From a virus, in the IMG/VR virus record IMGVR_UViG_3300037189_014399, positions 1-64,000 of that record: 64,000 nucleotides of DNA; one strand, given 5' to 3'. Shown here piece after piece: positions 3,271 to 36,214 of the stretch. Position 1 is the stretch's first letter, and each line of letters opens with the position of its first letter. Under the pieces are notes generated by a model. The model saw nothing but the letters and a program-made list of their open reading frames with translations, had not been told where the DNA came from and ran no database searches. The position numbers were made by a program, and so were the translations under genes.

Positions 3271-3339
3271 GTGTGCCGACACAAACATCGGCAGCGCTGG
3301 CCTGGTGGCTCACTGTGGTTCGATTCCACACAGCGCACG
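3271..3339 (+). ncRNA. tRNA-like element t1 (no anticodon arm)
   Basis: T-arm TGTGG-TTCGATT-CCACA (3314-3330) abutting CAGCGCAC, which pairs with GTGTGCCG (3271-3278, one mismatch) or GCGCTG (3294-3299). Confidence 0.6.
3276..3287 (+). repeat. CCRACACAAACA motif copy 1
   Basis: CCGACACAAACA. Confidence 0.75.
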
Positions 3340-3421
3340 CATCATACTGATTGGCGAGGTCTTGGCCGTTGTAGTCATAGGTATCCGATGCCTTGGTTAC
3401 GGTTCCTAAGGTAAAACCGAT

Positions 3422-3554
3422 GGGTAGGCAAGTACTAATGCAGGAGAGATCAAATGTGATTGCTGATACGAAAAAAGGATCGGGCTCCCAAGTGACAATG
3501 GTTTCCATTGAATACTGGTCAAGGACAGTCCCTGCACATCAGGCTTGCCTACCC
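3422..3554 (+). ncRNA. putative structured RNA C (~133 nt)
   Basis: perfect 11-bp GGGTAGGCAAG/CTTGCCTACCC, 6x7 internal loop, then TGCAGG/CCTGCA. Confidence 0.6.
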
Positions 3555-3577
3555 CCTAGCTAAAAAGGAAGGTACAT

Positions 3578-4174
3578 ATGTTAGACATAACACTCCACGG
3601 TACTCCTCAACACCGCAATTCACTATCAATGGATATCAATGTACGTGGTTGGGTAATCAAAGCCAACCACGATTACAGAGGTTCTCATGAGTGTGCATTT
3701 AAGGTTAACAATGTAGGAATTACCTTTGAGGTAGAGTCTTCCAAGCTTGGATTCATGCCTGATCGCTTAAGCATTCAAGGCAATTGGTCTACCAAAGATG
3801 GAAGAAAGTGGATGGATAACGGGGGTTGGTTACCTTGGGACACGATGAACAAGTTAAAGTTTGAGTTCTTGCCTGATGCTATTCAGCAGATGGCATATCA
3901 AAACCTTGTTAAGTATCTTGAGCAATCAACAATTACTCTGGGTAAAAATCTACAGACTCTAAAGATAAACAAGCGCTTCGTACCGCTTGGATATGTAGAT
4001 ATGAATTCTAATGATGACTCTGAGGATGCATTGCCATTCTTACCATCAGTTAGAACAACTCAACCATCACCATTCATTGGTATGGATGTATCCAAATGGA
4101 AAGTAGCACGAGAGGAGATGGCGTGGGATCCATCAAAAGCTACATCAAACGCAGAAACCTCATCAGAGGTCTAA
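3578..4174 (+). CDS. hypothetical protein
   Basis: ORF with AAGGAAGG SD. Confidence 0.75.
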   Translation: MLDITLHGTPQHRNSLSMDINVRGWVIKANHDYRGSHECAFKVNNVGITFEVESSKLGFMPDRLSIQGNWSTKDGRKWMDNGGWLPWDTMNKLKFEFLPDAIQQMAYQNLVKYLEQSTITLGKNLQTLKINKRFVPLGYVDMNSNDDSEDALPFLPSVRTTQPSPFIGMDVSKWKVAREEMAWDPSKATSNAETSSEV

Positions 4175-4398
4175 AGCGTTCAGCTAAATACGGTGGTGAG
4201 TGGGACATCAATGATATTGGTTCCGTCTCACTACGTATGAAAGACGGCAGCAACAGAGAGTATCTATTCTTCTGGCCTTATGGTTGGAAGGATGGCATAC
4301 ACCTATCAACACAGAAGATTGATAGCCTTATGCAATGTGAGACTATCGATGATATCTACACATTGCAGGAGGTAAGCAATGGAGATAACAATATATAA
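4123..4398 (+). CDS. hypothetical protein
   Basis: GTG 4123 with GAGGAG SD within ORF 4096..4398. Confidence 0.6.
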   Translation: MGSIKSYIKRRNLIRGLKRSAKYGGEWDINDIGSVSLRMKDGSNREYLFFWPYGWKDGIHLSTQKIDSLMQCETIDDIYTLQEVSNGDNNI

Positions 4399-4519
4399 CT
4401 GGTGGTTTAGTATCTATATTCCACAAGTTGTTGAGTTCCATACACAAATGGGTTGGGCAATAGCTGCTGTAGTAACAGCTGTTCTATTGCGACAGCTCAA
4501 GCGCAGGTTTCTTGGGTAA
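4379..4519 (+). CDS. small membrane protein, 46 aa
   Basis: hand translation MEITIYNWWF...WAIAAVVTAVLLRQLKRRFLG; GGAGG SD. Confidence 0.6.
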   Translation: MEITIYNWWFSIYIPQVVEFHTQMGWAIAAVVTAVLLRQLKRRFLG

Positions 4520-4536
4520 GTAATCCAAGGATGGCG

Positions 4537-4617
4537 GTGCATAGATGGACACTAGATACTGGTTCTTGACTTCCCTTCTCCCCAGTATCTTGGAGGGTTC
4601 AATTCCCTCTATGCACA
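4537..4617 (+). ncRNA. tRNA-like element t2 (tmRNA-TLD-like geometry)
   Basis: perfect 7-bp acceptor GTGCATA/TATGCAC; T-arm GAGGG-TTCAATT-CCCTC; 10-nt stemless D region; 9-bp helix AGATACTGG/CCAGTATCT with 19-nt pyrimidine-rich loop; no CCA. Confidence 0.75.
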
Positions 4618-4618
4618 C

Positions 4619-4810
4619 GGAGAAGACAGAGACCTAATGAGAGATTGCAAGTGCTCGGTATCCCATGGGGAGACTAATCCGACACAAACAATCGATCAAA
4701 AGCCCAGCGTAGTCTATATGATTTAAAGTTCCGTTCGATAAACCCGGACAACCTGCCTACTGTGCGATCATGAACCAATGTTGGTGAAACTGGTGTCTCT
4801 GTCTTCTTCC
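4619..4810 (+). ncRNA. putative structured RNA D (~190 nt)
   Basis: perfect 13-bp AGAAGACAGAGAC/GTCTCTGTCTTCT plus GG/CC; begins immediately after t2. Confidence 0.6.
4679..4690 (+). repeat. CCRACACAAACA motif copy 2
   Basis: CCGACACAAACA. Confidence 0.75.
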
Positions 4811-4828
4811 TAAACATAAGGAGAACAA

Positions 4829-5143
4829 ATGAGCAAGCCAAGAAAAAGAGTATCTCTTGGCACTCCAGTCAACCTACCACCACAGAATATAGATAACTGG
4901 AAGTGGCAATTTGATGCAGCGTGCAGAGATGAAGATAACAATCTCTTTTACTATCAAGATCAAGAACGTGGTGATCAAAAAGCATCGCGTATAAAAGCAG
5001 CCAAAGCAATATGTGCTAGCTGTCCAGTAAGCACGGCCTGTTTAGAGTGGGCAACCAGAACAAAAGAAACTCATGGCATTTGGGGTGGATTGACCCCAGA
5101 AGAACGCGGCATTAAGATGCCACACGAAGAATTGGTGGACTGA
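4829..5143 (+). CDS. whiB: WhiB-family transcription factor
   Basis: W...AAC...CxxCPVxxxCLxWA...GIWGG signature. Confidence 0.95.
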   Translation: MSKPRKRVSLGTPVNLPPQNIDNWKWQFDAACRDEDNNLFYYQDQERGDQKASRIKAAKAICASCPVSTACLEWATRTKETHGIWGGLTPEERGIKMPHEELVD

Positions 5144-5215
5144 TCATCCATCATATAGGGAGACTAGAGCGGGAGTTACAAGGTAACGAAAACTCTTTTC
5201 CACACCCTATGTAGG

Positions 5216-5426
5216 GCAGGCACACAATGAGATCTCCATTAGTTAATAAAGGATCGCCTCAAGATGCCCGTCTCCAGCAACGTCTGCATACGTCTGCATA
5301 CAAGAGTCCTCACGCACTAGTGATGAAGGTACCGTGCTAGCACAGGTCAGAAAACATCATGAACGCTACGACAGGTTGCGTATTACGGTATTACGGTTCC
5401 GTGAGCGAAGGCTGAGGGGTGCCTGT
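5216..5426 (+). ncRNA. putative structured RNA E (~210 nt)
   Basis: GCAGGCAC/GTGCCTGT closing stem; nested CCTCA/TGAGG and CTCACG/CGTGAG; internal tandem duplications. Confidence 0.5.
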
Positions 5427-5500
5427 ACATGACAGGAGCAAGGAATAAAGACTAATTCGGTCAGCTATATCTAATAACGTAAAAGGATATAGAGAACATT

Positions 5501-5607
5501 GTGTGTGTTTCACCTCACAACTATACGTGTCTGCTTATCGGCGTGTCGTTGTGACAGGGGGAGGGCGTGACTAGCAGACTTCAGGGTGCAAGTCCCTGAC
5601 ACGCACG
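5501..5607 (+). ncRNA. tRNA-like element t3
   Basis: GTGTGTGT/ACACGCAC acceptor-like stem; T-arm CAGGG-TGCAAGT-CCCTG; helix GTCTGCT/AGCAGAC; 2-nt linker as in t2. Confidence 0.6.
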
Positions 5608-5639
5608 CAGTTATAACCACCATCGGGGTGGTTAGCTGT
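5607..5639 (+). other. hairpin directly upstream of ATPase RBS
   Basis: TAACCACC/GGTGGTTA flanked by GCAGT/GCTGT. Confidence 0.55.
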
Positions 5640-5661
5640 AAAGAAAAGGAAGGCAGTAACA

Positions 5662-7035
5662 ATGAAAACAGCGGTGTTTGTAGAAACGTACGAACCGGCA
5701 ATGGGCGCAGATCGTCGTCAGACTATCTTCGTACCATTTAATGAAGACGTGCGAGTGTATACCCGTGTCACTGATGGACAGAAAGGATTGTCTAATAAGT
5801 GGAACGAAGTTGCAATTGACATGTTGCACATTAGCGAGTCGGAACGTATCACTAACAAGCCAGTTGGTGTACGTGTTACTGAGAACGACAACGACGATAT
5901 CAGTGAAAAGGGTTACTCACCTGTACTCACTGTCAAAGCCGTCAATGCCCACCTCAAATCAACACCATATGGAGAGCATGATTACAATGTCCTTGATGTT
6001 GTACGTGATCTCTACCAACATGTTAGTGCTCAAGATAGTGTGGTTGAGTCAATGATTATTGACAATCGTACTAAGCCTGAGCCTTCTCCATTCATGCCTG
6101 TTACAGAAGCTGCTCCAGTTCAGGAGTATGTAGAGCGTCCAGCCGACACAAACAAATCGCTGTCGCTGGCACTCGCAACTATTCCTGCACCTGAGCTAGC
6201 TGATCGCTATGTAAGCCGTAAGATCTTCGGTCTCGTAGATTACGAGGTCTTTGATCGTAGCCGTGCAAATCATATCGACACTCTTATCTACGGCCCTACC
6301 GGTCCTGGTAAGACGTCATCTGTAATGGCGTGGGCTTCAAGCCGCAAATTACGTGTTGCTACAGTATCCGGCAATGCTGCTCTCGAGCCAAGTCAACTCA
6401 TTGGTAAGTATGTACCAGATGGGAAGGGTGGCTTTGAGTGGATTGACGGTCCTGTGACTGACGTAGTTCGCAATGGTGGTGTTCTTATCCTCGATGAGGT
6501 TAACTTCATCAGCTCTAAAATCTATACCGTCTTGTATTCATTGCTTGATGATCGTCGTGCTCTCATTCTGCTCGACCATCACGGTGAGACTGTTAGTGCA
6601 CATCGTGACCTAACAATCTTTGCGACCATGAATCCTAGCTATGTTGGCACAGTGCCACTTAACTATGCATTCCGCAACCGTTTCGGTCTACAGATCTTCT
6701 GGGACTATGACGATAAGGTCGAGGCCAAGTTAATTAAGTCCGATGCAATCCTAACTGTAATGCGTCAGCTACGCAGTGAGGCTGCTAAGGGTGAGATCGA
6801 GACTCCAGTATCTACCAATATGGGTATGGAGTTGGAATCATTCATTAACGTCTTCAATTATGAGTTTGCAATTGAGAACTTCATTGCTCACTTTGACATG
6901 GAAGAACAAGAAAAGGTCCGTCTAGTCTTCACTACCCACGAAGCTAACATTCGTGCTGACTTTGAAGAAATTCAAGTCGAGTTGGTAGAAAAGGAAGATG
7001 ACATTCAAGCAGTAACTACAACAGTAGGAGCATAG
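5662..7035 (+). CDS. MoxR/CbbQ/CobS-like AAA+ ATPase
   Basis: Walker A GPTGPGKT, Walker B LILDEVN, ATMNP sensor, AFRNRF Arg finger. Confidence 0.92.
   Translation: MKTAVFVETYEPAMGADRRQTIFVPFNEDVRVYTRVTDGQKGLSNKWNEVAIDMLHISESERITNKPVGVRVTENDNDDISEKGYSPVLTVKAVNAHLKSTPYGEHDYNVLDVVRDLYQHVSAQDSVVESMIIDNRTKPEPSPFMPVTEAAPVQEYVERPADTNKSLSLALATIPAPELADRYVSRKIFGLVDYEVFDRSRANHIDTLIYGPTGPGKTSSVMAWASSRKLRVATVSGNAALEPSQLIGKYVPDGKGGFEWIDGPVTDVVRNGGVLILDEVNFISSKIYTVLYSLLDDRRALILLDHHGETVSAHRDLTIFATMNPSYVGTVPLNYAFRNRFGLQIFWDYDDKVEAKLIKSDAILTVMRQLRSEAAKGEIETPVSTNMGMELESFINVFNYEFAIENFIAHFDMEEQEKVRLVFTTHEANIRADFEEIQVELVEKEDDIQAVTTTVGA
6143..6154 (+). repeat. CCRACACAAACA motif copy 3 (intragenic)
   Basis: CCGACACAAACA. 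Confidence 0.7.
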
Positions 7036-7038
7036 CTA

Positions 7039-8997
7039 ATGGCATATAAGGATAAGATCGAATCAGGAAGGGGTAGACGTGGCGACAAAGCTCGCACAGT
7101 ACAAGATCAATTACGTTCTTTACGTCTTGGCGCAATAGCTAGGATGTATCAGGGCGCAGATCGTATCTTGACTGGCGATCCTGTAGTCGTCAACGTTGTA
7201 GATGAGGGTCCGGCCCCAGCGTGGTCGGACGGCGCATCTATCACTCTCAATGCTGCGATGATCAATGATATGGATCTTGAGACTATTGCTCAAATCAACG
7301 GTCTCAATTACCATGAGTTGTCTCATCACCTCTACACTCCACGCAAGGGTACCCCACTAGTTCAGTGGGTCATTGAAGAGAATCTATTCCAAGCATTCAA
7401 TTGCTTGGAGGATCAACGCATTGACTCTCTACTATGTGCACGGTATCCAAGCATCATGCCGTTCTTGACTGCTACGGTTCTTCGCTATCTAGCGGAGACA
7501 CCAAAGGAGGCAACATCAGCATATGCAATCGTGCGTGGTCGTAGATATCTACCAGTAGAAATTCGTACAGGCTTTAGAGAAATCTTTCATAAGCCTGAAC
7601 TTATTCCTGACATTGTACGTATCGTTGATGAGTATCGAGTGCTTGCATTCCCTCGGGATTACAAGCGTGCTCAAGAACTAATCAAAGAGTTCAATGACAA
7701 GGTATTGGATAAGATGGATCAACCAACATCTGGGGGTGTTTCCCAGTGTGGTCATCGTGTTCCAATAGCTAAAGGTAGACCAGATCCTGGTCGTCAACAG
7801 GAAAAGGATGCTGCACGTGCCAAAGGTCAAGGTGCTAAAGAACCTGACCTAACCGATGAAGAACTCAAAGCCATGATTGAATACATGGATAAAGAGAACG
7901 TCATGGATGATGGCGATGGCAATGTCCCAACACAAACACCAGCCGAGGACAGCACAGACTCACAAAATGAGACTGATACTAACCTCACTGGTGCTGAGCA
8001 AGTAGAACAACGTCAACGCAATGTGGCTAACTCGACCCCCAAGGTTGGTAAAGGCCATGTTGCTAGTGATGGTGGCTTGCCTGACGACTTGGAAATCACT
8101 ATCCAAAATGCTCTTAATGACATCTATGGTCGTAAAGACGTACAGATGGACGTTAAGCGCAAGCAACGCATCATTGTCAATGGTGGCAAAGACGATGACT
8201 ATGAAGAGACTGGTGTTCGTGGTAAGTTTGACGAAGCAACAGTTCCTCAATCAGAAATCATCGTATATCGTAAGTTCGCTAAGGAACTTCAACGCCTACG
8301 TGATGATGCTGAACCAATGTGGGAAAAGGAGATGCCTTCGGGTCGTCTCAATGTCCAACGTGTAATAAGAGGCTGCGAGATTGATGAGGCCTTTGATCGC
8401 TGGACAGAGCAAGATGACAGCTGCAATATTGAGGCTGTTATCTGCATTGACCGCTCTGGTTCAATGTGTTCAAACCGCAATGACGAGCGTGCTTCGCTCG
8501 CCAGCTGGGTTATCAAGCGTGCATTAGAAAGCATCGGCGCTCCGGTGACTGTGTATGCGTTTGATGACAAGACCGAAGTTGCGTACGCTCGCAATGAATC
8601 TGCACACAATACCAAGTTCAAGTTTATCTTTGGTAGTGGTGGTACAGATCCATACGAGTCGTTAGTTATGGCAGAAAAAGTCTTACTAGCTTCTCAGCGT
8701 ACAAACAAGATGCTATTCGTTATTACTGACGGTGTGTTCAACACTGAAAAGAATGACGAGTTGATCAAGCGTATTGGTCAGCGTGGCATCTTGACATGCA
8801 TGGTACTTATCATGCGTACTCAGGAGTACAACAACTCCTTAGAATATAATAAGCAATCGATTGAAAGAAATGGCAGACCACACTGGGAATTCCGTCATGA
8901 AGCAGAGATTTTTGGCCAAGTAGATAGCGGCCGTGATCTCCTTAATCTGGCAAAGACCGTCGTGCTCGGTGCTATTAAAAAGAGATCGAGGAGATAG
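7039..8997 (+). CDS. vWA-domain protein with N-terminal HExxH metallopeptidase-like domain (CobT-like MoxR partner)
   Basis: HELSH and LEDQRID in N-terminus; acidic linker; MIDAS DRSGS...GGT...ITDG. Confidence 0.9.
   Translation: MAYKDKIESGRGRRGDKARTVQDQLRSLRLGAIARMYQGADRILTGDPVVVNVVDEGPAPAWSDGASITLNAAMINDMDLETIAQINGLNYHELSHHLYTPRKGTPLVQWVIEENLFQAFNCLEDQRIDSLLCARYPSIMPFLTATVLRYLAETPKEATSAYAIVRGRRYLPVEIRTGFREIFHKPELIPDIVRIVDEYRVLAFPRDYKRAQELIKEFNDKVLDKMDQPTSGGVSQCGHRVPIAKGRPDPGRQQEKDAARAKGQGAKEPDLTDEELKAMIEYMDKENVMDDGDGNVPTQTPAEDSTDSQNETDTNLTGAEQVEQRQRNVANSTPKVGKGHVASDGGLPDDLEITIQNALNDIYGRKDVQMDVKRKQRIIVNGGKDDDYEETGVRGKFDEATVPQSEIIVYRKFAKELQRLRDDAEPMWEKEMPSGRLNVQRVIRGCEIDEAFDRWTEQDDSCNIEAVICIDRSGSMCSNRNDERASLASWVIKRALESIGAPVTVYAFDDKTEVAYARNESAHNTKFKFIFGSGGTDPYESLVMAEKVLLASQRTNKMLFVITDGVFNTEKNDELIKRIGQRGILTCMVLIMRTQEYNNSLEYNKQSIERNGRPHWEFRHEAEIFGQVDSGRDLLNLAKTVVLGAIKKRSRR
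7927..7938 (+). repeat. CCRACACAAACA motif copy 4 (intragenic)
   Basis: CCAACACAAACA. Confidence 0.65.
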
Positions 8998-8998
8998 T

Positions 8999-9709
8999 AT
9001 GACTAACTGGCTACATCCAGCCAGGGTTCATACGTATGAAGAAGCAGTTGATTATCTGAGCAGGGGTCGCAATAAAGATATGCGACCCCTGTATCATATG
9101 GGGCTGTTCATCAAACGTCTAGAACCTGGCAATGAAAGTTCAAATATAGCCATCGGTTATTTTAATACCTACAACAGAACACCTGAACGATATAGAGCCA
9201 TGACTATGGTTATCTTTCGTGAAGATGGTTTAGTTGAGTTACCAGGTTGGAATACCTGGTCTGGTGCTAGACGAGCGATGGTTTCATACTCCAACCTTAT
9301 GGGTATGAGATACAGCAGGGGTAACATTAAGTTACGACAGCCTCACGACACAGTAAAGAAGCGTAGTAGAAGACCATGCAAAGTATGTCATGGTATGACT
9401 ACGTGGTTTGAGCGTGAAGACAGCGGTAACTTAAAAGAATCCAAATGCCATCAATGTATAGATGGTTGGAGTGTTAGCAGAGATTCAATTATCTCTGACA
9501 CTTGGCCACAACAGCAGATGAGCATTTACAGCGATTGGAATAAATCCTTAACAGCTGTAACTGTCTACAAGCGTATGCTTGTTAACCCCCAAACTCATAC
9601 AGTTATTGGATTTGTCGATCATCTTGATGACACAGATGAAAACATCCTAGCTGTAGAGCCCGTGATAAAGGTAACAAGAAAGGAGGTAACCGATGATAGT
9701 AATGCTTGA
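8999..9709 (+). CDS. hypothetical protein with CxxC...CxxC zinc finger
   Basis: ATG 8999 with GAGGAG SD; CKVCHG...CHQCIDG. Confidence 0.75.
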   Translation: MTNWLHPARVHTYEEAVDYLSRGRNKDMRPLYHMGLFIKRLEPGNESSNIAIGYFNTYNRTPERYRAMTMVIFREDGLVELPGWNTWSGARRAMVSYSNLMGMRYSRGNIKLRQPHDTVKKRSRRPCKVCHGMTTWFEREDSGNLKESKCHQCIDGWSVSRDSIISDTWPQQQMSIYSDWNKSLTAVTVYKRMLVNPQTHTVIGFVDHLDDTDENILAVEPVIKVTRKEVTDDSNA

Positions 9710-9932
9710 TGTTACTACGAACACACTTGTAGGTCCATTCGAGACGGAAGAAGCTGCCGTTGAGTTTAAGCTCAACGCATCTGAAGAGATCAATGATCCA
9801 GATCAACAGCTGGATTTGTATGAGTTGACATCACCACTACAGTGGATGTTAGATAACTTCACATCCGTATCGTTGGTAGACGAGGCGCCCAACACAAACA
9901 TTGCGCCCGCCTCCACCATAGAATTGGTTTAG
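9693..9932 (+). CDS. hypothetical protein
   Basis: AAGGAGG SD. Confidence 0.7.
   Translation: MIVMLDVTTNTLVGPFETEEAAVEFKLNASEEINDPDQQLDLYELTSPLQWMLDNFTSVSLVDEAPNTNIAPASTIELV
9889..9900 (+). repeat. CCRACACAAACA motif copy 5 (intragenic)
   Basis: CCAACACAAACA. Confidence 0.7.
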
Positions 9933-9969
9933 CGTCCAGCTGAGCCAATAACAAAGGGAGGAGATATAC

Positions 9970-10170
9970 ATGTCAGAACAACCGTTCATGACAATACGAG
10001 TCACAGTTGAAATGAGACTATACAAGGGGCGGTTATTGGAGGATCTTAACAATCCAGAAAATTACCGCATTGCGATATACGATCAGTTCTCTCGGATACT
10101 CAAATTCCATGATACGTTACGAGACGGCGAGTATATAGACCTGTTGTTTGTCGAACAGGTAGATCCCTAA
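9970..10170 (+). CDS. hypothetical protein
   Basis: GGGAGGAG SD. Confidence 0.7.
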   Translation: MSEQPFMTIRVTVEMRLYKGRLLEDLNNPENYRIAIYDQFSRILKFHDTLRDGEYIDLLFVEQVDP

Positions 10171-10173
10171 CGG

Positions 10174-10210
10174 GAAAGGCCCCTAGGTTCACGAGGCCTA
10201 GGGGCCTTTC
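10174..10210 (+). terminator. strong hairpin, probable terminator
   Basis: perfect 14-bp GAAAGGCCCCTAGG/CCTAGGGGCCTTTC just after stop codon. Confidence 0.7.
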
Positions 10211-10253
10211 ACACATTGAAGAGAAGGTGCAACATAATTATACAGGAGGAATT

Positions 10254-10430
10254 ATGGACGAATTGCAAATGTTTCTAGAGAGCCTAGAAGAACGTATGCA
10301 AAACCTAAAGGATGAAATCCTAGGGCTAGATGAAAATGATTCTACGTATCCTTATATTGAGGGATGCATAGAAACAATGCAGTGGGTTCTTGAAGAGCTT
10401 GCTGACATTGAAGTTCCAGCAGCAAACTAA
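10254..10430 (+). CDS. small acidic hypothetical protein
   Basis: ATG 10254 with AGGAGG SD. Confidence 0.7.
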   Translation: MDELQMFLESLEERMQNLKDEILGLDENDSTYPYIEGCIETMQWVLEELADIEVPAAN

Positions 10431-10446
10431 ACAAAGGAGAAGCAGG

Positions 10447-10986
10447 ATGCATACATTACAGTATGTAGCAATCCATGTTGATGAGCTGCCGGAGGGTGAA
10501 AACGGTAAAGAGTATGCTTTAGCTATGGCTAGAGATATGTTAGAAACCGATGACTCTCCAGCACGCTGGTCAGACTGGTGTCAAGTAGGTGGTGGTCGAT
10601 GGCAAGACGTTACCTGCGTATTAAATGGTGCTACTGATGAGGCAGACTTTAAAGCTGCTTTAACAGATGCAAAAAGAGGGCGTGCAAATAACCTTAAAGA
10701 TCTGGCTGATAAGGTTGATATGAAAAACCTTATGCAACTAACTAAGGGTTATATTGCAAAGCTTGAAGGAAAACCATTCCAACCCTGGAATGCAATAGAA
10801 GATCTTGGTATGAATATGGATATCTATCGCATTAACAGGATTACAACCGTATTGACTGGTGATTGGACTAGCGACAGCGGGTTCTATGACCTATCCACAT
10901 ACGACTCTGAGTTTAAATTCGTTGAACAACGTTTAGACGCAGAACCTGAAAAGCAATACCTAGTACCCGTTGACTTTCACTTCTAA
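10447..10986 (+). CDS. hypothetical protein (WSDW...GGGRW; C-terminal VDFHF)
   Basis: ATG 10447 with AAGGAG SD. Confidence 0.75.
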   Translation: MHTLQYVAIHVDELPEGENGKEYALAMARDMLETDDSPARWSDWCQVGGGRWQDVTCVLNGATDEADFKAALTDAKRGRANNLKDLADKVDMKNLMQLTKGYIAKLEGKPFQPWNAIEDLGMNMDIYRINRITTVLTGDWTSDSGFYDLSTYDSEFKFVEQRLDAEPEKQYLVPVDFHF

Positions 10987-10996
10987 GGAGGGTGAG

Positions 10997-11260
10997 ATGG
11001 CTAAAGTAATTTGGAACACATGGGAAGTAACTATCACTAAGAACCTTGAGAAAGGTGGTGCTTGGTTAACTCTGTGCGTATTAAAGGATGAGCTAGGTGA
11101 TACTGAAAAGGCAATCACCAATGCTTGGAGTAATGCATCGGCTGCAAAGCGTGATGTTAAGGCAACCGTTGGCCGTAAGACAATGAAGTTCATTGAGGCC
11201 GGAGAAGATGCCAAAGGCAAGCCAACTTCCTACACCGCCGTGGTGCAGGTTAAAAAATAG
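10997..11260 (+). CDS. hypothetical protein
   Basis: ATG 10997 with AAGGAGG SD. Confidence 0.7.
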   Translation: MAKVIWNTWEVTITKNLEKGGAWLTLCVLKDELGDTEKAITNAWSNASAAKRDVKATVGRKTMKFIEAGEDAKGKPTSYTAVVQVKK

Positions 11261-11269
11261 GAGAAACAA

Positions 11270-11542
11270 ATGGAGAAATGGAAGGCTGTACGTATGCTGG
11301 AGATCCTTTCAAAAGGATTATCAGAAGCAACAGCAGATGATATGCGTTATCTCACTAACAATGTAGAACCATTCAGTGAGTTCCTATATAACGTAGCAAC
11401 ACAAGAGTTCACCAAAGATGGTGTTGATCCTGAGAAGGTTAAATCAATACTTCATCCTCTTGTTGAGATCAGCAAGATGGCTGGTGCTAACTCCTTTGCT
11501 GATTACGTCCATGTAACTAATATAGTAGACGAGGAGGAATAA
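11270..11542 (+). CDS. hypothetical protein
   Basis: AGGAG SD. Confidence 0.7.
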   Translation: MEKWKAVRMLEILSKGLSEATADDMRYLTNNVEPFSEFLYNVATQEFTKDGVDPEKVKSILHPLVEISKMAGANSFADYVHVTNIVDEEE

Positions 11543-11543
11543 C

Positions 11544-11690
11544 ATGGAAGAGTGTGAAAGCTGTGGTGTTGTAAGCACCAAAGTAGCTCTCTACGAATTT
11601 GCCTTAGGCGAAGAGTATGAGGAGCACGGCACCGAGGTTATGTGGTGTCCAGACTGCACTGATGACGATTACGTATTAATAAATGGTTAA
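11544..11690 (+). CDS. acidic zinc-ribbon micro-protein, 48 aa
   Basis: hand translation CESC...CPDC; GAGGAGG SD. Confidence 0.6.
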   Translation: MEECESCGVVSTKVALYEFALGEEYEEHGTEVMWCPDCTDDDYVLING

Positions 11691-12189
11691 TACGTTCTTG
11701 CCATGGCCAGATCGTAAGCAGACTGCTGAGACATTGGATAACAAACGTCTTGGCAAGCAACGAGTCGAGGCATTACAAATACTAAGAGCTAACCTTGGTC
11801 TTACCAAAGGCTGGGTTAATCATCCTGCTGCAGTAATGTGGCGGGGTCACGAAGGATATCTCTATGGGTACACCAATGCTATGTGCATTACCTGGCGTGA
11901 ACGTGGTTATGAAGACAACGTTCAAGCTAGGTTGCAAGAGCTCTACCAAGAGCATGATCTGAAAGGCTGGGATGAACCGTGGTGGTTTAGTAACCCAACG
12001 TTCAACCTAAGTCATCAGTCAAATCTGTTGCGTAAAGATGAGCAGTACTATAGGATGTACTTCCCTCCTGATGTACCGATTGACTTGCCATATCAATGGC
12101 CAATGCCAGACGGCACATTTAGGATAGTACAACGGAAAGAAGCTAACAATGGACTACGAAAGCGTAGAGCTGATCGTGGGCAAACCTAA
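11683..12189 (+). CDS. pyrimidine dimer DNA glycosylase / endonuclease V-like (MSMEG_6728-type)
   Basis: TFLP...LDxKRLGKQRVEALQIL...HPAxxMWRG...SHQSNLLRKD pattern. Confidence 0.85.
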   Translation: MVNTFLPWPDRKQTAETLDNKRLGKQRVEALQILRANLGLTKGWVNHPAAVMWRGHEGYLYGYTNAMCITWRERGYEDNVQARLQELYQEHDLKGWDEPWWFSNPTFNLSHQSNLLRKDEQYYRMYFPPDVPIDLPYQWPMPDGTFRIVQRKEANNGLRKRRADRGQT

Positions 12190-12283
12190 CAGGGTATGCC
12201 AACAATGTGGCGGACGTGGTTTCCTATACTGGGGTAACACTCAGGAATATGATGTAGAGAAATGCGAATGTCAAAAGGATTAG
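12149..12283 (+). CDS. zinc-finger micro-protein, 44 aa
   Basis: hand translation CQQCGGRG...CEC. Confidence 0.55.
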   Translation: MDYESVELIVGKPNRVCQQCGGRGFLYWGNTQEYDVEKCECQKD

Positions 12284-12345
12284 CAAACATTTTACCCCTG
12301 CTTGAGAACTCTTCTCTGGTTCTCAATCAGGGGTAAAATGTTTGT
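12283..12345. terminator. very long hairpin at convergence of transcription units
   Basis: GCAAACATTTTACCCCTG-C-TTGAGAAC / GTTCTCAA-T-CAGGGGTAAAATGTTTGT. Confidence 0.65.
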
Positions 12346-12350
12346 GTCGG
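12339..12350 (-). repeat. CCRACACAAACA motif copy 6 (inverted)
   Basis: TGTTTGTGTCGG on + strand. Confidence 0.75.
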
Positions 12351-12393
12351 GCGGGCGGGCATATGTCTGACCAGTTACCTAGCGCAGACAACC

Positions 12394-12425
12394 AATACTC
12401 TTCTGTATAAGAAGAGTATTTTTTT
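12394..12425 (+). terminator. intrinsic terminator
   Basis: AATACTCTTC/GAAGAGTATT followed by T run. Confidence 0.65.
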
Positions 12426-12430
12426 ATGAA

Positions 12431-12571
12431 TTAAGACTCTTCCCAATCATCGTCTTCATCTTCATCCCAATCTTCATCTTCTTCATCCCAGTCATCGAGG
12501 TCTTCATCATCAAAGTCCTCGTCATCTAGTTCAAAAAGGTCTTCATCAAAGTTATCTTCTTGTGGTGCCAT
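12431..12571 (-). CDS. hyper-acidic micro-protein, 46 aa
   Basis: hand translation MAPQEDNFDEDLFELDDEDFDDEDLDDWDEEDEDWDEDEDDDWEES; starts 3 nt after RNR stop. Confidence 0.7.
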   Translation of the reverse strand: MAPQEDNFDEDLFELDDEDFDDEDLDDWDEEDEDWDEDEDDDWEES

Positions 12572-35028: not shown

Positions 35029-35733
35029 TTACTGAGCGGCGAGAATTTCCCTTGCAATTTCTTCAAGCTCAGACTTAGTGGATGGCCGGAGAGCTTCGGG
35101 TCCTAGTGGCTTGAATTTGTTAAGGATCTCAGCAGCAGCAACAGGATCAATCTCCCAATCCTCTGCAAGGTCACGTTCCTTGACTACTTGAATTGAGTAG
35201 GTGGTCTTCGTGCCTGTACCTGACTTAGCTACAGCCCAGTAGAGATCATTACGGTGGATTGGACCTGTTGCCTTTGAAGTTGAAAGCTTCTCAAGCTGAG
35301 AGAACAAACGTACGCCAACAACCATTAGCTGTACTTTTGGTTCTTCTTCTCCAGTCAAGTTAACAACGCTGAATGCAAACTTGCGTTCAGGACGATTGCC
35401 TACTCGCTCTAGCGGATCTCCGCTCCATCCAATGAATGACTTCTTTCCTGGACGTTGTACCCAGTGTTGCAAGAACACCATAGGTTCATCGCTAAGGAAC
35501 TTAATTAGTTGCACATCTTCTGTGAACTTAAAATCTGATGTAAAAGAAGCGCTGGCTTCGTCTTTAGCTTTCTTAGCTGCAGCCCAACCAACCTGGATCA
35601 CTGATGAGCGATCCGGCACTTCGTTCTCATCCTCTTCTTCGAACACATCGGGATTGAACTCTTCCATATCTGGTGAGTATGTGTCCATGTTTACTTCATC
35701 CTTGCGAATACGCAAGCTGTTATTAGTTGTCAT
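35029..35733 (-). CDS. probable single-stranded DNA-binding protein
   Basis: OB-like pattern (IKFL, QHW, KSGTGTKTTYSI); adjacent to polymerase. Confidence 0.6.
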   Translation of the reverse strand: MTTNNSLRIRKDEVNMDTYSPDMEEFNPDVFEEEDENEVPDRSSVIQVGWAAAKKAKDEASASFTSDFKFTEDVQLIKFLSDEPMVFLQHWVQRPGKKSFIGWSGDPLERVGNRPERKFAFSVVNLTGEEEPKVQLMVVGVRLFSQLEKLSTSKATGPIHRNDLYWAVAKSGTGTKTTYSIQVVKERDLAEDWEIDPVAAAEILNKFKPLGPEALRPSTKSELEEIAREILAAQ

Positions 35734-36214
35734 TTCCATTTCCATTTCCATTGGCAGTTTCATTGGCATGAATCTTAGTCCATGTTTCTACCAATTCAAT
35801 TGATAGATCACGATGTCGATTCCAATCAATCCTAGGGGCTTCGAGAAGTCCCCGAGATTGAAAGCTCTGTAAGGAGGACTCTATCATAGCACGACTGTAC
35901 ATACGCCAGCCTGGCTTTTTCTTACCGTCCACCATCATTGATTTTAATCTATATGGTGCTTTAGGGATATACCCCTTGCGTTCCCATAGTCGTACAGTAA
36001 CTAATGGCCTACCCAGCGCAGCAGCAAATGCTCCAGCGCTATAGAGCTCAAGTGTCTTGCCATTAGGAAGCTTTTTTATAACTGGCTTTACTTCCCAGTT
36101 ATCTTTGTCAAGCTTTTCTTTTACAGGCTTCTCGACAGCACGACGTTTACGTTTGGAACCAGGATAGAACTCATCAAGCTTTCCAAACATATCATCAATT
36201 GCGTCCTTGGCCAC
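35723..36214 (-). CDS. MerR-like HTH DNA-binding protein
   Basis: YSAGAFAAALGRPLVTVRLWERKGYIP...RMYS. Confidence 0.75.
   Translation of the reverse strand: MAKDAIDDMFGKLDEFYPGSKRKRRAVEKPVKEKLDKDNWEVKPVIKKLPNGKTLELYSAGAFAAALGRPLVTVRLWERKGYIPKAPYRLKSMMVDGKKKPGWRMYSRAMIESSLQSFQSRGLLEAPRIDWNRHRDLSIELVETWTKIHANETANGNGNGNDN

Follow-up and report, generated by a model that had tools for sequence, protein, structure and literature searches.

A conserved, transcription-oriented 12-nt word in the early gene block of a family of lake actinophages

The early gene block and its six copies of the word

IMG/VR virus record IMGVR_UViG_3300037189_014399 is a complete phage record of 104,858 bp with an 87-bp end repeat, and the stretch analysed here (the window) is its first 64 kb, positions 1 to 64,000. 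The rightward genes form a single block that starts near 103.9 kb (first + gene at 103992), crosses the record join and ends at 12.2 kb; all other genes run leftward. Our subject is a 12-nt word, CCRACACAAACA, in and beside this early block, for which a pattern search returned six exact matches within the window, five on the + strand and one on the − strand. Three + copies begin CCGAC (CCGACACAAACA) and two begin CCAAC (CCAACACAAACA), and since the rightward genes make up one block, all five lie on its sense strand. Copy 1 (3276..3287, CCGACACAAACA) is intergenic, as is copy 2 (4679..4690, CCGACACAAACA), which has the start of a WhiB gene 139 nt downstream. Copy 3 (6143..6154, CCGACACAAACA) lies within a MoxR-type ATPase gene at register offset 1, copy 4 (7927..7938, CCAACACAAACA) lies in frame (PTQT) in a vWA gene at a position kept across the phage family described below, and copy 5 (9889..9900, CCAACACAAACA) occupies the 3′ end of a conserved 79-aa open reading frame (ORF) at offset 1, with the next start 70 nt downstream. 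The inverted copy (12339..12350, −, CCGACACAAACA) falls in the 3′ untranslated stretch past the last leftward gene and is thus sense for the leftward block.

An initial annotation of the window, made by eye, had listed these six copies at the same positions and none elsewhere, and our counts agree. Allowing one mismatch added no copies in the window, and the whole 104,858-bp genome holds no further copy; even the 8-mer CACAAACA occurs in it only within the six. In 100 dinucleotide shuffles of the window the mean was 0.02 copies and none of the 100 reached six, so the observed number is far from background (6 against 0.02 expected). The annotation was likewise correct in placing three copies inside open frames in two registers (6143 and 9889 at offset 1, 7927 in frame).

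The inverted copy is closely tied to a predicted terminator. A bidirectional terminator hairpin (12274..12334; −38 to −43 kcal/mol, z about −7 to −8) stands between the convergent blocks, and the minus copy sits between this hairpin and the last leftward ORF (end 12431). The hairpin (−38 kcal/mol) takes in the last four bases of the minus copy and pairs with the next six bases of its flank. Leftward transcription would accordingly end at the minus copy, as first proposed from its position, given that it adjoins a hairpin of −38 kcal/mol past the last leftward ORF. A second hairpin followed by a T run (12394..12420, +) is terminator-like for rightward transcription. The last leftward ORF here, of 46 aa (12431-12571, −), holds the same place as the last leftward gene of related phages, which lies beside their inverted copy and ends in a strongly acidic tail, as read from DNA.

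Four of the five + copies in this genome can form a mini-stem (CGA...TCG three times, CAA...TTG once) with loops of 8, 9, 10 and 8 nt. The core of copy 1 lies inside an 8-nt loop closed by GCCGA/TCGGC, copy 2 has a CGA...TCG stem, and copy 5 lies in a loop closed by GGCGC/GCGCC. The mini-hairpin reported in the initial annotation is therefore present, and its compensatory change is real; as a general property of the word it does not stand, being specific to this lineage and absent from the family signal (5/336 copies in relatives, 2.3% in controls). Two tRNA-like mini-folds, at 3291-3328 and 4537-4618 (+), have an acceptor stem and a GGTTCGATTCC-type T arm with no anticodon arm. The first begins 3 nt past copy 1, and ARAGORN calls no tRNA at either. 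Such T arms showed no association with the word across the family, and scans with Rfam and ARAGORN returned nothing relevant.

Conservation and placement among related phages

An alignment-based scan with the ATPase recovered 70 IMG/VR loci, of which about 60 share the layout described above, including nearly all loci whose ATPase is at least 50% identical. In each of them 2-12 + copies are distributed along the rightward block, whose right end is marked by a single − copy. The family consensus from 311 non-redundant + copies is YCRACRYAAACA, with A as the next base in 69%, and CCRACACAAACA is best read as its local form. Positions 2, 4, 5 and 8-12 are invariant, and positions 1, 3, 6 and 7 vary by transitions only. 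The consensus reads AACAC (302 A against 9 G), and this genome is atypical in that four of its six copies have G as their third base. Among ~340 non-redundant copies from ~60 loci, every + copy is sense for the rightward block and the single opposite-strand copy of each locus is sense for the leftward block, which bears out the earlier proposal of an asymmetric signal oriented with transcription. The word is letter-perfect while the surrounding proteins have diverged to ~55% identity, and few other non-coding features of this large and abundant group of lake actinophages are conserved as strongly. By these comparisons it is a genuine, strongly selected control signal, asymmetric and oriented with transcription.

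Spacing is nearly as regular as orientation. The median gap between successive copies is 1,231 bp with a coefficient of variation of 0.29, compared with 0.83 under random placement; only 1 of 255 gaps is shorter than 500 bp and almost none is shorter than 750 bp. Related genomes share history, meaning that these spacing counts are not independent, but the pattern holds inside each genome. The further statement in the initial annotation that the word is confined to the early region applies to this genome, whose late block has no copies, but not to the family as a whole: three complete relatives carry a few late-block copies (up to one mismatch), 14 of them sense and 4 antisense, compared with 1.8 and 1.0 for shuffled words.

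Some lineages carry variant words, which mix AC, AT and GT at positions 6-7. The most informative change is in L058, a 37-kb IMG/VR contig, where YCGCAACAAACA, with positions 4-5 swapped, occurs at 682, 2421 and 4723 (+) and at 6958 (−), the last being its terminator copy; one canonical copy is left at 3776. A change shared by the terminator-linked copy and the copies of the block points to a trans-acting reader that co-evolves with the word.

The position of the inverted copy is equally stable. On the + strand of 47 non-redundant relatives the order is the last rightward gene, an A-rich stretch, a GC hairpin, three A/T bases, the complement of the word, and the end of the last leftward gene. 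In nearly all relatives, 3 nt therefore separate the inverted copy from the terminator hairpin that follows it in the leftward transcript, and in rightward transcripts its complement supplies the U-rich tract of that terminator. Two of the late-block copies in the complete relatives also stand before an intrinsic terminator hairpin, at 3 and 15 nt, one of them with a clear T run.

Copies inside genes are informative about the level at which selection acts. Across the family, intragenic copies fall in registers 0, 1 and 2 in 88, 57 and 8 cases. In relatives the copy in the ATPase gene is translated in frame as P-T-Q-T, within a linker whose sequence otherwise varies. Here the corresponding codons 152-155 (6115..6126, +) read CCA GTT CAG GAG (PVQE), a decayed ancestral site, and the present ATPase copy at 6143 lies 28 nt downstream in a different register. 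The gene has thus undergone site turnover. Use of several registers together with this turnover argues that the word is selected as nucleotides; protein constraint does not explain the copies, as had been suggested from this genome. The word even dictates amino acids.

Placement relative to genes is far from random. Counting only stop codons that end an open frame of 50 codons or more, 97 of 345 copies (28%) begin 0-7 nt past a stop, compared with 7 of 345 controls; 62 of the 97 begin 0 or 1 nt past the stop. A share of 28% lies 10-40 nt upstream of a Shine–Dalgarno sequence plus start codon (6.6% in controls). The distance from word to start codon is at least 10 nt in all cases except one. 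Positions deep within genes are under-represented (42% against 59% of controls). Where genes of 1.4 kb and 2 kb leave no intergenic space nearby, the word sits in a linker; its being written into the linkers of long genes suggests that a copy is needed about every kilobase. Family flanks contain no second motif at a fixed or loose distance from the word. Their sole signal is a downstream stretch of 10 nt, poor in T and rich in C, for which linkers and ribosome-binding sites may be responsible.

The phage itself is a myovirus-type actinophage. Its rightward block encodes WhiB, the MoxR-type ATPase with its vWA partner and a denV-like glycosylase; the leftward block encodes ribonucleotide reductase, a DpdA-like protein, PolA, DnaB, a DnaG-type primase, a DnaC-like loader, UvsX and baseplate proteins. 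DNA comparison with the cultured-phage collection found no close relatives. The nearest cultured phages are the Gordonia GMA6 group and Brevibacterium phage Cantare, the one cultured phage whose gene map was inspected, which differs in layout. With the nearest cultured phages it shares the ATPase domain alone, at ~45% identity. The ATPase has more than 600 homologues on contigs of ~100 kb, and the first 120 homologues listed for the neighbouring DpdA-like gene all fall within the same phage family; a scan of the genome contigs with WhiB gave no match.

Possible readers of the word and alternative explanations

We tentatively prefer a reading in which the word is recognized during transcription, on RNA or on the non-template strand, and hold this to be a reasonable possibility rather than a probability. 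Under this reading the word would be a strand-specific cis signal of the early operon, read during or just after transcription as nascent RNA or exposed non-template strand. The reader would be a dedicated trans-acting factor co-evolving with the word and most probably encoded by the phage. Such a factor could punctuate the early transcripts at ~1.2-kb intervals, and the leftward block at its 3′ end, either altering elongation or termination by RNA polymerase or marking points of RNA cleavage or protection. A common trans reader with its own specificity, most likely phage-encoded, fits the data best, and the regulator invoked in the initial annotation is called for by the concerted change in L058, the background frequency of the word in the sampled actinomycete genomes and the lack of a pairing complement elsewhere in the phage. 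Once found, the reader would show how these phages time or protect their early programme, and it could provide a compact, orientation-dependent control part for actinobacterial genetics.

Several observations favour single-strand reading. The sense rule holds even for the rare late-block copies, and the word keeps a fixed position beside stop codons and terminator hairpins. It consists of A and C only and for that reason stays ~73-75% unpaired in predicted folds. The mini-stems, although limited to this genome, have loops of variable length, which suits a hairpin rather than a rigid duplex site. Variation by transitions only at positions 1, 3, 6 and 7 counts in the same direction. Geometry at the terminator also matters, since a roadblock bound to duplex DNA before the hairpin would be expected to stall polymerase ahead of hairpin formation, and a factor bound to RNA would fit better.

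Other observations weigh against this preference. Accessibility of the word (0.726) hardly differs from that of the word placed at random sites (0.701) and is an effect of composition, and hairpins up- or downstream of + copies are not enriched in the family. An RNA model gives no specific reason to expect the even ~1.2-kb spacing or the copies retained in long genes. No RNA dataset is listed for this phage DNA. The hunt for a reader among the conserved early proteins gave none, and P241 and P93 had no informative fold match. Stoperators, which are sites on duplex DNA, follow the same orientation rule (PMC9283540).

Gene presence, assessed by clustering over 31 complete early blocks, narrows the search for a reader. 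Present in 31/31 are the ATPase, the vWA protein, a 241-aa protein (8999-9706, +) with two CxxCxGxG zinc knuckles, and a small acidic protein of 66-79 aa (79 aa here; 9693-9932, +). The gene for the 241-aa protein changes position: some genomes have it upstream of the ATPase gene, others downstream of the vWA gene. A basic 87-aa protein (10997-11257, +) with GGAWL and SAAKR motifs and 52% mean column identity is found in 28 of the 31 blocks and is missing from several word-carrying loci, including all those with variant words. AlphaFold models have a predicted local distance difference test (pLDDT) score of 84 for the 87-aa protein (beta3-alpha-beta2) and 71 for the 241-aa protein, in which the N-terminal domain is confidently modelled; neither has a structural match above Z 6, and the 87-aa model gives only a weak DUF1508-like structural hint (Atlas). 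The readers named in the initial annotation fare no better, none being tied to the word. WhiB occurs in only 17 of the 31 blocks by clustering, and the geometry of WhiA/WhiB sites does not fit, as discussed below. The MerR-like candidate is probably a 163-aa protein of the replication module (35723-36214, −), which shows an N-terminal MerR-type helix-turn-helix at sub-threshold level (E 0.035).

The main rival is a polar roadblock of the stoperator kind, which we regard as doubtful, if far from negligible. A monomeric two-domain phage protein on an asymmetric duplex site would halt or slow polymerase arriving from one side, shutting off the early block or excluding antisense transcription. The change of all copies in concert in L058 would be expected of such a system as well, and tolerance of transitions alone is compatible with a protein–DNA interface. 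However, there is no copy at the divergent promoter region, the first being reached ~1 kb inside the block in relatives and ~4 kb inside it in this genome; searches of the complete genome with Phage_integrase and Resolvase found no match, leaving no lysogeny to maintain, and no repressor was recognized in the genome. Copies 3 nt before a terminator hairpin would gain nothing from a roadblock, and the variable-loop mini-stems of this genome fit poorly with a duplex site.

We consider it likewise doubtful, while worth keeping in view, that the word belongs to an undescribed mechanism that measures distance along the operon, by means of a strand-loaded factor renewed about every kilobase or of a strand-specific mark, such as a nick or modified base, that spares the template. 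No described phage control element accounts for a layout that combines even spacing on the kilobase scale, a uniform orientation and one inverted copy beside the terminator, and if such a mechanism operates here it matches no known class of phage regulator.

A polar signal in DNA metabolism seems distinctly improbable. The word might be a fork barrier averting head-on forks at the convergent blocks, a priming or helicase-loading site, or a strand-specific nick site whose sense orientation is selected to spare the template strand. The ~1.2-kb spacing, in which gaps below 750 bp are almost absent, is similar in scale to Okazaki fragments; like Ter sites, the copies converge where the two gene blocks meet; and the phage encodes its own DnaG-type primase, DnaB, a DnaC-like loader, PolA and UvsX. 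Primers of phage T7 consist of A and C only, like the word, whose complement contains GTY. Three of ~28 contig ends inside the block, the starts of L019 and L062 and the end of L044, lie inside or within 4 nt of a copy (p ~0.01 by our own rough estimate), a weak lead that might hint at a physical discontinuity in the DNA. Against this, an assembly of the source run, probably representing the source sample, crosses all six sites unbroken. Priming sites would be needed genome-wide, yet 90 kb has none or few, and the side with many barriers appears to be the wrong one for a simple fork trap. Placement past stop codons and before terminator hairpins follows landmarks of the transcript.

We give little credence to a boundary or recombination signal, a short shared junction for swapping early-gene cassettes between phages of the sort proposed for T4-type promoter–stem-loop repeats. 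The block does hold fast-changing small genes, copy number ranges from 2 to 12 among relatives, and homology to the ATPase begins 28 nt past a copy in one locus (L059). Homology ends about twice as often at the word as at random places, but this excess is what gene boundaries alone give. The best-conserved copies occupy fixed positions in the two genes that are themselves conserved most, a 12-bp match is little for homologous exchange, and recombination at the inverted copy would invert DNA.

Slimmer still are the prospects of the word acting as all or part of a promoter, to which a phage factor, for instance WhiB together with host WhiA, would redirect the host polymerase. Many copies do lie shortly upstream of genes, the block encodes WhiB, and the variant in this genome contains GACAC, the asymmetric WhiA site (PMC10243135). 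At WhiA/WhiB promoters GACAC stands upstream of −35/−10 elements in either orientation and at variable distance (PMC10243135). A site of this sepX type is disfavoured by sequence and geometry: the family consensus is AACAC, not GACAC, the word is strictly one-way, and copies lie 10-20 nt from starts or before terminators with no promoter partner. A promoter of any kind is hard to reconcile with the lack of a second element at fixed distance, with copies 10-20 nt from a start codon, directly before an intrinsic terminator of the same direction or kept within long genes, and with the absence of any match to sigma-70 or T7-type polymerase in the phage genome.

Pairing between RNAs is very improbable. 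A rightward small RNA read across the inverted copy would pair with the + copies and trigger decay of early messages; complementarity over 12 nt is perfect, the + strand at 12274-12420 has a hairpin–seed–terminator layout, and all variants are transitions that G-U pairing could absorb. However, position 3 of the inverted copy is G in this genome and in L008 and L061, where two, eight and eight + copies respectively have A, giving an A-C mismatch. This mixture of G and A indicates that copies drift independently within a tolerated set rather than pairing with one another. A universal partner would be expected to stay constant, but the inverted copy shows as wide a range of variation as the + copies, and the genome has no other complement of the word even with G-U allowed.

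Least likely of all is a word of a host system, namely a Chi-like recombination signal, a guide for uptake or a translocase, or a site pairing with rRNA: it is an oriented, over-represented short word with a G/T-rich complement like known Chi sites, but it is longer than any of these at 12 nt, pairs at 10/12 or better with neither 16S rRNA nor its flanking sequence in two small actinomycete genomes, and occurs only 0-8 times per strand in 401 genomes sampled from class Actinomycetes, about as often as the reversed control. The 401-genome sample includes four unpublished genomes (G013, G021, G269 and G379) of which the result is independent. The only cluster in the sample is in one GC-rich actinomycete, with seven exact same-strand copies (G228:C1:2854728-2899637); they fall in nearly identical repeats of giant ORFs that reach ~14 kb and probably encode polyketide synthase modules, and they are unrelated to the phage signal.

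Relation to described systems

Short oriented signals that reprogram an elongating polymerase are well described. In lambda nut (boxA/boxB) and ops/RfaH the signal is read from the non-template strand or from nascent RNA; boxA and ops share the 12-nt length of the word, and these elements occur once or twice near the start of an operon. At nut sites NusB-NusE binds boxA and NusA binds a U-containing spacer (AUU/AUA). The word differs from these in its 2-12 copies, none of them in the first kilobase, and in the lack of a NusG paralogue and of any sequence likeness. Mimicry of boxA or of the NusA BoxC was considered and rejected, as the word has no U and shares only AACAA with rrn boxA (PMC2724277). 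No such word occurs in the rrn leaders of two actinomycete genomes. A loading site of the ops/RfaH type was set aside because the phage genome has no NusG-domain match; a host factor could be involved.

The 13-nt asymmetric repeat of Cluster K mycobacteriophages known as the start-associated sequence (SAS/ESAS) lies upstream of start codons, co-oriented with the genes, and has no known reader. In SAS the ribosome-binding site is part of the repeat, which stands a few bases ahead of the start codon, whereas the word described here has no G, usually abuts the preceding stop codon, and is also found deep inside genes and before terminators. In phage T4, RegB recognizes GGAG, a 4-nt element within the ribosome-binding sites of early messages, such that a phage factor singles out early messages. 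The likeness to our case is a short word in early transcripts, and the differences are its 12-nt length, its even spacing and the lack of a known nuclease. Ter/Tus and the fork barriers of ribosomal DNA resemble the word in layout, with asymmetric polar sites converging on one junction; here many evenly spaced sites lie on one side and one on the other, and no Tus- or RTP-like protein was seen. We know of no Tus- or RTP-like protein in actinobacteria.

The initial annotation had likened the word to mycobacteriophage stoperators and lambda nut sites, and both analogies are fair. Stoperators of Cluster A mycobacteriophages (L5 gp71, TipsytheTRex repressor; PMC9283540) provide the closest match, being asymmetric words of 12-13 nt in many copies, with an orientation tied to transcription, a preference for short intergenic spaces and lineage-specific variants that change in concert. 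Asymmetric, multi-copy, transcription-oriented sites are present here as well. The differences lie in distribution and context. No operator copy was found at the early promoter in the ~4 kb from 103992 across the join to 3276, and the phage has no integrase or recognizable repressor. The word is found mainly in one 13-kb block, evenly spaced at ~1.2 kb and kept inside long genes, and one inverted copy is fixed 3 nt before a terminator hairpin. Lacking the early-promoter copy and the features of a lysogeny module, this is not a stoperator system in the strict sense. We therefore file the word as a new variant among the oriented asymmetric repeats of actinophages, with the stoperator as the nearest described kind.

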